In this document: piece after piece, positions 3,001-6,000 of the stretch | Position numbering within the stretch: position 1 is the stretch's first letter | Layout: the number at the start of each line of letters is the position of its first letter | DNA from: a virus | Taxonomy: Duplodnaviria; Heunggongvirae; Uroviricota; Caudoviricetes | Reading direction: 5' to 3' (one strand) | Virus record (IMG/VR): IMGVR_UViG_2737471869_000011 | Length of the DNA stretch: 29,299 nucleotides | Made by a program: the position numbers

Positions 3001-6000
3001 CATCCATTCCCACACCGTCACGAAATCCCGCATGCAACATACCTTCAAAGGTTATCGTTCTGGCCCCCTTACCGGTATACTGCAGCAGATCGTTTTTTCC
3101 GATAAGCTGTTGTTCATCCCACCGCCATTCCATGGTGCGCTTCATGGCGTTATACGCTGCCGTATCGATACTGAATTCAAACTCACCAAACGACAGCATG
3201 ACGCGGGAAGCCACCTCCGTTAATGAGCCCACTGCGTCCCATGCTTCGCGCTCAAGCCGGTTTACGCCCCAGCCCAGTAAATCCACCATCTTCACCCCCA
3301 GGATTCATAACCATCAGTCATACGGGAACGCTGGCCAAAATTAATATCCCCCAGATTTTTCATCACCCTGTCTGCAAGTTGTCCGGCATCCTCGCCAGGT
3401 TTCTGGGTAATGTTGAATTCCGCCCGTATCTGATACGTGGGTTTTACTTCCACCTGGCTGATACTGCCGGGTGTATACTGGAGAGCTGAAAGGCGATCAG
3501 GATTTTCCTGTCCCTGACCAGCCGCAGGAAGTCCGTCAATGTAGGTGCGGGATTTCTCTTTTATCGCCTTAAAATCAGGTTCTTCCTTCGGTCCCAGCAA
3601 AGGGTCGAGAAATGCATCAAACTTTTTATCGTCATGATTCCAGGGGAGATAACCGCGGGTGTCTTTATAGGCCTGTACAACCTGTTTTGTCAGGTCAGGA
3701 TTTTGCCTGAGCAGTTCATCAAACCATTCACCCTGACCGTTTTTCTGCGCCACTACTCTCGCCAGCTCCGGCGACCCCATTTTTGCCAGATACTCCAGCA
3801 CTTCCCGTCGGTCCTCTCGCGGATCATCCGCCAGCCCCCACTCAATGGCTTTTTGTGTAATTCCGGCAAGAACTTTTCCAAATTTCCACATCCAGGCAGC
3901 CAAGTCGATCAGCGCCGGCAGGGCATCATCACGAATAAATGCCCGGATTTTTTCCAGTCCACCATTCTTAAACCAGGCCGCAAGGTCATCCGTCACCTGT
4001 TGAATATGTGGTGCCAGCTCCTTACCCAGTTGCCCGCTGATTTCATCAATGGACGAACTCAGAACATTACTGAGATTTGACAGCGCCATATGCCCCTGAA
4101 CTGCGCCATCTGCCCCTGCCTTTGTCACCAGGTTATAGCGTTTCTGCTCACTGATAAGCTTCCGGTAAGTTTTTCCTGACAGACGCATCCAGGTCAGAAT
4201 TTTATTGGCCTCACCACCAAACAACGCATCTGCCATCCCGGCTGCCACCTGTTCATTCTCTACCTGCAGTAAGCGATCAAATAAAAATTCGACCTGCTCC
4301 TGGTTACTTTTCCCTGCCATCACCCCGGATTTCAGTCCCAGTTTGCCAAAGACCTCCTGAATGGCCCCTTTATCCGTGGCACCATTATCATCGTCAAAAA
4401 CCTTGTTCCGGTACTCCTCAAACAGATCACCGATGTTTTCACCGTTCAGCCCCATCAGTCGGGCCAGAGAATCCCACGCCGCATAGGTTTCATAATCCAC
4501 TCCGTAACTGCGGGCGATCCCTGCCCGCTCCGCCGTTTCACTGTTCCGGCTAAGTGCTGCACCTGCAGCGCCTGCCAGTGTCAGTCCTGCCCCGACTGAA
4601 AGCCCGCCCCCCACTTTCAGGGCAGTCATTCCACGCCCTTTCCAGCGAGCCAGACGTTCCGCACGCGCCAGTTCGCGGTTAAATCTGTCCTGCTCAGCGG
4701 TGGCATCATGGATTTTTTTACCCAGCTTTTCATACTGCTTTCGCAGATCGGTAATATCCTGTCCTGCCAGTACGCCAGCCTAGATTTTTCGTTTCAGTAC
4801 GTCCTGCTGGCGTGTCAGACGAGCCACTTCACGCGTGGCTCCGGAAAGGCCCTTTTTCAGGCCATTAACAGAATTTTTCCACGACGGATCTATCGTGCCG
4901 CCGATCCGGATATTCGCTTTAAGGTTATCGCCAACCGTTGCCATAACATCGCTTCCTCTCTTCCGACTCCGCCAGCATCATTGCCACAAAATCCGTATAC
5001 GGCAGCGCCATCACATCTCCTGGAGACCACCCGAACCAGACACCGGCACGCCGTATCGCCATCAGGATGCTTTCTTCTTCCGCCGGACCGGCGGCAGCAA
5101 AAAAACATTAAACTGCCGCTCCAGGGCCAGGTAATCACACGCTTCCATGTTCATCATGTCCGCCGCGTCCATCCCGCACAGACCGGCAATCATATCCAGA
5201 TCAGCCTCTGCTTCCGGTTTGTTACTCCGACGATGCAACAGACGATCGCGGACAGTGGGCGCACGCATGGTGACGTGCGTGATCGTCTGTCCTGATGCGG
5301 TGACATACGGCACGGATAACACAATTTCCACGCTGCTGGCAGGAACACTGTTTTTTTCTGACATAAGTACCTACTTAAAAAAAGAAAAGGCGGCCTGAGC
5401 CGCCTGAATGACAGGATCCCGGATTAAACCCGGATGATTTTTTTCAGATCCGCCAGAACATTAACGCCATTAATACGACGTACAAACTCCTCCGGAATAA
5501 TGCAGATGGTTTCCACACCGTCGACAGCCTGGCGGTAATAACTCAGCGACATTTCCACCGTCACCGAGGCGTCTGCCTGCGATGTTGCCGGACGTGCATC
5601 CGGCGTGATACTGGTGATCATCCCCTGCAGGGTTTCCACCTGTCCGCTGGTCGCATTCCCCACCTGATAGCCCTGGCGGACAACAATCTCCGGCGAATAA
5701 AGCCCGGCCTGTAATCCCAGCAGCGTCAGCATGGCAACATCATAACCATAAATCTTAAACGAACAGGTCAGTGCTTCCATGCCGTCATCCACTGCCACCG
5801 GTGCATCCATTGCGCCGGTTTTGATATCCACTGTCGTGATATTAATGGCAGGCGGTGTGTATTCATGCGCCCCCTGAAGGCGGATCCCGCCAGGAAGAAA
5901 TAACGCCCATGCGCGCAACAGTTTTTTTTCACCCGTCATCATACTGTCAGTTCCTCCAGCGCCAGTTTATTGTTAATCATTGCCCGCAGTGTCAGGCGCT

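Follow-up and report, generated by a model that had tools for sequence, protein, structure and literature searches.

The analyzed stretch of DNA (hereafter the window) is 29,299 bp long and represents the whole contig JWZR01000196.1 of the E. coli draft assembly GCA_000819375.1; a literature search for this assembly (JWZR01 / GCA_000819375) returned no paper. According to BLAST searches, the window is a mosaic, in which the tail, head and early regions each have different closest relatives. The closest complete genome over the tail module is that of E. coli 08-00022 (NZ_CP013662.1), which is nearly identical to it. A group of Okinawan bovine strains shares 99.8% identity with the window over the head module, while the early region is similar to O157-type lambdoid prophages. 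The head module has a lambda-like composition (Nu1/gpA terminase, gpW, portal, S49 protease, gpD- and gpE-like proteins). Overall, the element is a prophage that combines a lambda-like head module with a P2-like contractile tail. ARAGORN and Rfam identify two tRNAs in the window, tRNA-Thr(UGU) and tRNA-Asn(GUU). Some E. coli genomes have two copies of the tail module found in the window.

The part of the tail module considered here is encoded on the minus strand and includes the following features (the basis of each assignment is given in brackets):

5939..7414, minus strand: sheath, 491 aa (tail gene order)
5424..5942, minus strand: tube, 172 aa (tail gene order)
5062..5364, minus strand: gpE-like tail assembly chaperone, 100 aa, immediately upstream of the tape-measure-position gene (PF10109, E = 2.1e-12)
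4925..5104, minus strand: E' extension reached by a -1 frameshift (slippery heptamer T TTT TTG at 5104..5098; -1 frame open to the stop at 4927..4925)
3292..4944, minus strand: tape-measure-position gene (the position of P2 gpT), 551 codons including the stop, broken at codon 55 (translation, intact orthologue in 08-00022, PHROG 3654, synteny)
4780..4944, minus strand: N-terminal 54-codon fragment ORF, RefSeq WP_244463897.1 (ORF and RefSeq gene call)
4780..4782, minus strand: amber codon TAG at codon 55, ancestral CAG (Gln) (comparison with relatives)
4779..4783, minus strand: former Dcm site, ancestral CCAGG, now CTAGG (sequence comparison)
3292..4629, minus strand: C-terminal 445-aa ORF from the first ATG after the TAG, RefSeq WP_244463896.1 (ORF and RefSeq gene call)
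2801..3289, minus strand: gpU-like tail protein, immediately downstream of the tape-measure-position gene (PF06995, E = 1.6e-28)

The tail genes follow each other in the order sheath, tube, PF10109 chaperone with E', tape-measure-position gene, gpU, gpX and gpD. The gene of interest is thus placed between a frameshifting tail-chaperone pair and the distal tail/baseplate-hub genes (gpU, gpD). The E' extension, called as a 45-aa ORF in all the relatives, overlaps the start of this gene by 20 nt. The reading frame opens at ATG 4944..4942, which has a Shine-Dalgarno region GAGAGGAAG upstream, continues for 54 sense codons and encounters TAG at 4782..4780. Beyond the TAG, 495 further codons are open in the same frame, up to the TGA at 3294..3292. 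The first ATG past the TAG is at 4629 and is preceded, at a distance of 6 nt, by an AAGGG motif resembling a Shine-Dalgarno sequence. An earlier reading of the window from the sequence alone (hereafter the sequence-only reading) had arrived at the same layout by hand translation (ATG 4944, 54 codons, TAG 4782..4780, ORF 3292..4629), and these coordinates proved correct upon re-translation. The public contig JWZR01000196.1 itself gives the 54-aa and 445-aa gene calls, and the window is thus not an altered version of the public record. In 08-00022, the intact 550-aa CDS (WP_047088967.1) is annotated by RefSeq from the same ATG.

The sequence-only reading labeled the gene as encoding the tail tape measure protein. 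The position of the gene speaks for this label, and so do weak matches to seven PHROG families annotated as 'tail length tape measure protein' (E-values from 8.6e-10 to 2.6e-4), but membership in a Pfam or NCBIfam family does not back it. The restored 550-aa protein matched no family in Pfam (e.g. PF10145) or NCBIfam, and a weak match to PF10145 (E = 1.4e-4) was obtained for only one of 30 family members. The protein has a family of its own, PHROG 3654, which matches residues 3-549 (E = 2.8e-209) and is labeled 'unknown function'. PGAP labels some of the orthologues 'phage tail tape measure protein'. The profile search of the restored protein against PDB produced a designed helical bundle as the only match. 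Among deposited phages, megablast of the region gave no match; tblastn found distant homologues, and the cultured Citrobacter phage Chris1 has the same gene order, with a 41%-identical homologue in the same position. Based on synteny together with the weak PHROG hits, we infer that the gene probably encodes the tape measure.

Homologues were used to establish the extent of the gene. With Gln restored at codon 55, the protein is identical to one (P0037) that occurs on 89 contigs and is indexed in 138 blocks of the collection. The 120 close homologues listed (92-100% identity) are all 550 aa long, cover the full query and have Gln55; residues 1-105 are no more variable among them than the remainder. 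The exhaustive search of 50%-identity representatives retrieved 644 relatives, of which the closer ones mostly align residue 1 to residue 1. In the alignment of 30 distant homologues (23-58% identity), all 30 start at the same Met as that of 4944. The N-terminal 105 residues represent the best-conserved part of the family among these distant homologues, as four of the six invariant columns (L43, L50, G61, Y71) and also six near-invariant columns are located there. Position 55 itself is variable in the distant set (R/K/Q/A/L/E/V) and is always occupied by a sense residue. Given the shared start of the homologues at Met 4944 and their conserved N-terminal 105 residues, we consider the gene to be truly interrupted. 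In agreement with the sequence-only reading, a single in-frame TAG at codon 55 breaks a 551-codon frame that is homologous over its full length to 550-aa proteins and to PHROG 3654.

The codon that has been replaced by TAG could be deduced from near-identical relatives, as the ancestral CAG (Gln55) is present in every close relative examined. Over 2,109 bp (3292-5400), the window and 08-00022 differ in a single base, 4782, and 08-00022 reads CAG. When the comparison with 08-00022 covers 3090-8085, the TAG in the tape-measure gene is still the sole difference, which rules out hypermutation or one-strand mutagenesis. GCA_025600215.1 (over 11,476 bp) and GCA_052965535.1 (over 9,337 bp), both having CAG, also depart from the window solely at base 4782. 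The assemblies GCA_025028455.1, GCA_025600215.1 and GCA_005392005.1 are the same as positions 1-14944 of the window (14,944 bp) except for positions 60 and 4782, and all have CAG. Position 60, the window's other private base, lies near the contig end. As all the close relatives have CAG, the change in the window is a private coding-strand C-to-T transition on an otherwise unchanged background. The sequence-only reading had proposed CAG as one of the three likeliest ancestral codons, and both 08-00022 and the draft-assembly relatives bear this out. As to the distribution of the TAG allele, the cluster table places the 54-aa and 445-aa products on one contig, and a further contig, 10-20 kb in size, appears in the position index. 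Exact-match scans of viral and metagenome contigs detected the CAG allele in two viral contigs and the TAG allele in none.

Comparison of the ancestral sequence AAAAATCCAGGCTGG with that of the window AAAAATCTAGGCTGG reveals a C-to-T change at the second C of a CCWGG site. The ancestral coding-strand context is AAAAATCCAGGCTGG (codons ATC CAG GCT), and the mutated base 4782 corresponds to the inner C of CCAGG, the cytosine that Dcm methylates. Dcm is reported to be conserved in E. coli (Militello et al. 2012, cited in PMC9210283). Spontaneous amber mutations in lacI cluster at the second C of CCAGG and arise via deamination of 5-methylcytosine to thymine (Coulondre et al. 1978, as presented in PMC12606429). 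Very-short-patch repair by Vsr acts on the T:G mismatch that this leaves in CTWGG/CCWGG, but it is not always successful (PMC2715241). In the restored window, there are 65 CCWGG sites; if these are methylated, 130 of the 29,299 bp (0.44%) are 5-methylcytosine positions, and a random substitution is a deamination-type change at such a base pair with a probability of 0.0015. In the gene itself, 196 stop-creating substitutions are possible; eight of them (4%) are Dcm-site deaminations, and all eight give TAG. Base 4782 is located outside any homopolymer or repeat, mid-way in a long stretch that otherwise matches the relatives perfectly. The likeliest route to the observed allele would start with the host Dcm methylating the inner C of CCAGG at codon 55. 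The 5-methylcytosine at 4782 may then have been hydrolytically deaminated to thymine and have escaped Vsr very-short-patch repair, and the conversion of CCAGG to CTAGG would turn the Gln55 codon CAG into amber TAG. A lambda cI amber at a CCAGG site was reportedly used by Lieb to define this type of repair.

The second in-frame TAG, which the sequence-only reading had noticed in the antirepressor gene, is real as well:

26402..27124, minus strand: antirepressor gene with Rha (PF09669) and KilAC (PF03374) domains, in-frame TAG at 26764..26762 (Pfam domains; relatives read CAG)

This TAG splits the antirepressor into ORFs of 120 and 118 aa. In the relatives, its context is GAG CAG AAA, which is not a Dcm site; therefore, the hotspot explanation is limited to the tape-measure TAG. 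At least 19 contigs, which come from several samples and in part have an extra SNP at 26409, encode the truncated antirepressor product; the truncation is therefore an older, inherited allele. The assembly GCA_047262175.1 is 100% identical to the window over 16762-29299, including the antirepressor TAG, and has CAG at tape-measure codon 55; therefore, the two ambers arose separately. We also asked how often a nonsense mutation is expected to be an amber. Among the possible stop-creating substitutions, the share of TAG is 42% in the tape-measure gene and 40% in the antirepressor gene; among stop-creating transitions, the corresponding values are 63% and 50%. The joint chance that both nonsense mutations are TAG is 0.17-0.32.

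Sister prophages show lesions of several other kinds. GCA_047262175.1 has lost 2 bp of the tape-measure gene (4470-4469) and has gained an IS21-family element in the tail-fibre assembly gene. A P2-like prophage interrupts the tape-measure gene at about 4850 in GCA_023188235.1, as it does in about ten similar contigs. The large terminase of 08-00022 is frameshifted, and sister prophage copies include a TerB-family gene with an internal stop. Truncated, non-partial versions of the tape-measure gene also occur in other E. coli assemblies. Independent inactivating lesions in essential phage genes are thus present among near-identical copies, as expected of a decaying prophage. Relatives with the intact tape measure do not differ from the window in the length of any other structural gene, and the amber is therefore the sole visible structural lesion in the window. 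Their unchanged lengths fit a recent event. The sequence-only reading had offered three explanations for the TAG, a suppressor-carrying host, a recent nonsense mutation in a decaying prophage and a sequencing error. The second of these is clearly the best supported, considering the private change of CAG to TAG, its Dcm context and the lesions in the sister copies. In our view, it is highly probable that the TAG arose very recently, through a spontaneous nonsense mutation of the tape-measure-position gene in an E. coli prophage.

This interpretation has to be weighed against others. It might be argued that nothing is broken and that the locus naturally comprises two functional genes, one for a 54-aa protein and the other for a 445-aa tape measure starting at Met 4629. 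Both gene callers and RefSeq do list the two ORFs as separate proteins, and the AAGGG motif precedes ATG 4629 at a spacing of 6 nt. However, the sequence-only reading itself named homologues that start at the equivalent of Met 4629 as evidence against an interruption, and there are none among the 150 examined; the 120 close homologues listed and the 30 distant ones start at Met 4944, and all are colinear from Met 1. Moreover, residues 55-105 belong to neither ORF, yet they hold the invariant G61 and Y71 and the near-invariant L67 and I78, and the split is private to one assembly. Judging by these sequence comparisons, the existence of two natural genes is effectively refuted, and we give it next to no credence. 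An error of sequencing or assembly, such that the isolate really has CAG and the coding-strand T at 4782 is a mistake in the draft consensus, is unlikely, although it has several points in its favor. The TAG allele is recorded for one draft contig and one contig of 10-20 kb, possibly not from an independent isolate; it is a one-base difference from otherwise identical relatives; and the private base at position 60 near the contig end hints at some assembly noise. On the other hand, a random error would be a deamination-type change at a 5-methylcytosine with a probability of only about 0.0015. Changes of this type make up 8 of the 196 (4%) stop-creating ones, while real spontaneous mutations are strongly enriched there (PMC12606429). 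Neither a homopolymer nor a repeat is present at 4782, the long surrounding stretch matches the relatives perfectly, and the second contig with both exact truncated products does exist. The Dcm-hotspot context of base 4782 therefore favors a real mutation over a random read error. By a rough estimate, this context moves the odds about tenfold toward the real mutation and away from the consensus error: under uniform error 4% of stop-creating changes would be of this type, compared to about 40% if 5-methylcytosine transitions are about ten times commoner. Thus, a sequencing error is less likely than a real mutation.

Another explanation accepts the TAG as real and considers it to be functional. 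A suppressor tRNA or substantial readthrough would decode both TAGs, and the prophage would be viable, perhaps with lower expression. The presence of two in-frame TAGs in one prophage, both derived from CAG, makes this worth considering, as do the persistence of the antirepressor TAG in at least 19 contigs and the argument that bacteria frequently read through in-frame stops (PMC7918605). In addition, position 55 tolerates many residues in distant homologues, and therefore any suppressor would probably restore function. If this explanation were true, both TAGs would act as expression attenuators and the output of particles would depend on the suppression capacity of the host. Nevertheless, we consider it very improbable. 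A search with ARAGORN and Rfam found no suppressor tRNA with the CUA anticodon within the 29,299-bp window. None of the relatives shares the tape-measure TAG, and no in-frame stop at codon 55 is seen in the family (Gln55 in the 120 homologues listed, a sense residue in 30 of the 30 distant ones). The two TAGs differ in age, and GCA_047262175.1, which shares the antirepressor TAG, combines CAG at codon 55 with a frameshift and an IS in tail genes, pointing to decay and not to maintenance. Two ambers are by themselves unsurprising, as TAG accounts for 40-63% of the possible nonsense outcomes. The frequency of TAG, the different age and distribution of the two ambers and the lack of a suppressor tRNA in the window together rule out the pair of ambers as a sign of suppression or recoding.

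A recent nonsense mutation would have straightforward consequences. Translation from ATG 4944 would stop after 54 residues. As the conserved N-terminal segment is cut off from the rest, the full-length product should be very scarce. The 445-aa fragment might be produced from ATG 4629, without residues 1-105. Since the assembly of a contractile tail needs the tape measure, the prophage in the window should not build normal tails by itself. We infer that it is tail-defective, barring a rescue through readthrough, a suppressor, restart at ATG 4629 or a related prophage resident in the same host.

What the window shows is an ordinary amber that arose recently at a textbook hotspot of mutation, not a new biological feature. 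Its significance is mainly a matter of annotation, and it does not open a new question. RefSeq lists WP_244463897.1 (54 aa) and WP_244463896.1 (445 aa) as 'hypothetical proteins'; they are pieces of a single gene, which should be flagged as a pseudogene. In predictions of inducibility or lysogeny, the prophage of this isolate should probably be scored as tail-defective. At the same time, the locus is a tidy natural case of the Dcm-site amber hotspot as the first step of prophage decay, and it belongs to a set of several near-identical prophage copies in which the tape-measure-position gene was inactivated independently.

The tail region closely follows the known organization of the phage P2 tail cluster (FI sheath, FII tube, E/E+E' chaperones, T, U, D). 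The gene order is the same, and the gpE-like PF10109 chaperone with its T TTT TTG -1 slippery site and E' is likewise followed by gpU (PF06995), gpX and gpD. The N-terminus of the window protein is coiled-coil-like, in which respect it can be compared with the P2 tape measure gpT. However, gpT of P2 is 815 aa long, while the window protein is shorter (550 aa) and forms its own family, PHROG 3654; the head module that accompanies it is lambda-like. The window resembles phages with stop-codon recoding in that TAG interrupts the reading frame of phage genes, one of them a late structural gene. In those phages, TAG is reassigned and suppressor tRNAs are phage-encoded, whereas here there are only two TAGs, neither of them conserved in its family, the element encodes no suppressor tRNA and the host, E. 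coli, uses the standard code. The closest parallel at the level of the mutation itself is provided by the amber hotspots of lacI (Coulondre, Miller, Farabaugh & Gilbert 1978), where CCAGG likewise changes to CTAGG and CAG (Gln) to TAG. The lacI ambers are selected laboratory mutants with demonstrated methylation, while the window represents a single natural prophage allele, for which both methylation and the deamination route are presumed. Finally, the sister copies display the lesions typical of defective or decaying E. coli prophages, which gather point mutations, IS insertions and deletions. Unlike more decayed prophages, the window has the tape-measure amber as the sole lesion seen in a structural gene and would thus represent the very first step of decay.

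Judged by comparison with L005, H32-H41 and H46-H57 (the sequences and matches set against the whole window), the contig is a mosaic. The tail module shows ~100% identity to E. coli 08-00022, the head module 99.8% identity to Okinawan bovine strains, and the nin/antirepressor segment (26300-27200) 99.8% identity to STEC lambdoid prophages. Two typical repeats, the genes for tail fibre and Dam methylase, mark the points where the contig is broken. At position 60 the window has an A of its own, against T in every relative; the base lies 60 nt from the contig end, within the tail-fibre gene cut off there, and may represent contig-end assembly noise. 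The features considered below are as follows.

Features of the window discussed in this part
4925..5104 (-), E' part of a P2-type gpE/E+E' tail-chaperone frameshift: slippery heptamer and open -1 frame
22078..22695 (+), cargo gene on the opposite strand, between the lysis and terminase genes
24217..24372 (-), prophage-borne pair of tRNA-Thr(UGU) and tRNA-Asn(GUU), in phage orientation upstream of the lysis genes
26402..27124 (-), Rha + KilAC antirepressor gene, divided by a TAG at 26764..26762
27762..28436 (-), ant, ORF6N/P22_AR_C antirepressor gene, adjoining the RNA elements at 28486..28681
28486-28571 (-), C4 antisense RNA (Rfam)
28594-28668 (-), isrK (Rfam)
28629-28681 (-), c4 a1/b1 target element (Rfam)

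Two antirepressor genes are present in the window, ORF6N/P22_AR_C (ant) and a second, Rha/KilAC. The TAG within the latter is a CAG-to-TAG change located outside any Dcm site. At least 19 contigs, drawn from several samples, share the allele, and some of them have a further SNP at 26409, so it is inherited and circulating. Because an ATG (26758) follows two codons past the TAG, the KilAC half could be re-initiated there as a separate protein. As for ant, the C4 antisense RNA, isrK and the c4 a1/b1 target element are found directly upstream. Together they look like an antisense-controlled antirepressor module of the P1/P7 immI type placed in a lambdoid early region.

The tape-measure gene is disrupted in other ways elsewhere. 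In GCA_023188235.1, a copy otherwise identical to the window prophage, a P2-like prophage carrying integrase, Cox, RepB and gpA resides inside this gene near codon 32 (~4850 in window coordinates). About ten similar contigs display the same arrangement, and a P2-type attachment site may be present here within the tail gene of another prophage. The sister copy in GCA_047262175.1 lacks 2 bp at window-equivalent 4470-4469, which splits the gene into 167 + 399 aa. As this assembly is a single 5.3-Mb contig, the deletion could be a long-read artefact. The tail-fibre assembly gene of this copy carries an element of the IS21 family (IstA/IstB) at window-equivalent ~7962-7971. Three more shortened tape-measure proteins of 412-421 aa (P0006, P0007 and P0014), one with a frameshifted N-terminus, come from other E. 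coli assemblies; they are located on long contigs and bear no partial flag, suggesting additional independent disruptions in other lineages.

The tail-chaperone gene has a T TTT TTG slippery heptamer at 5104..5098 (-), after which the -1 frame stays open as far as the stop at 4927..4925 (-). RefSeq lists the E' part as a hypothetical protein in its own right (WP_157839838.1, 45 aa) rather than as a frameshift product.

In relatives, the cargo gene is annotated as lipopolysaccharide core heptose(II)-phosphate phosphatase (His_Phos_1). The tRNA pair reads as tRNA-Thr(UGU) and tRNA-Asn(GUU) in the window; the equivalent pair of 08-00022 is annotated as tRNA-Thr and tRNA-Gly.
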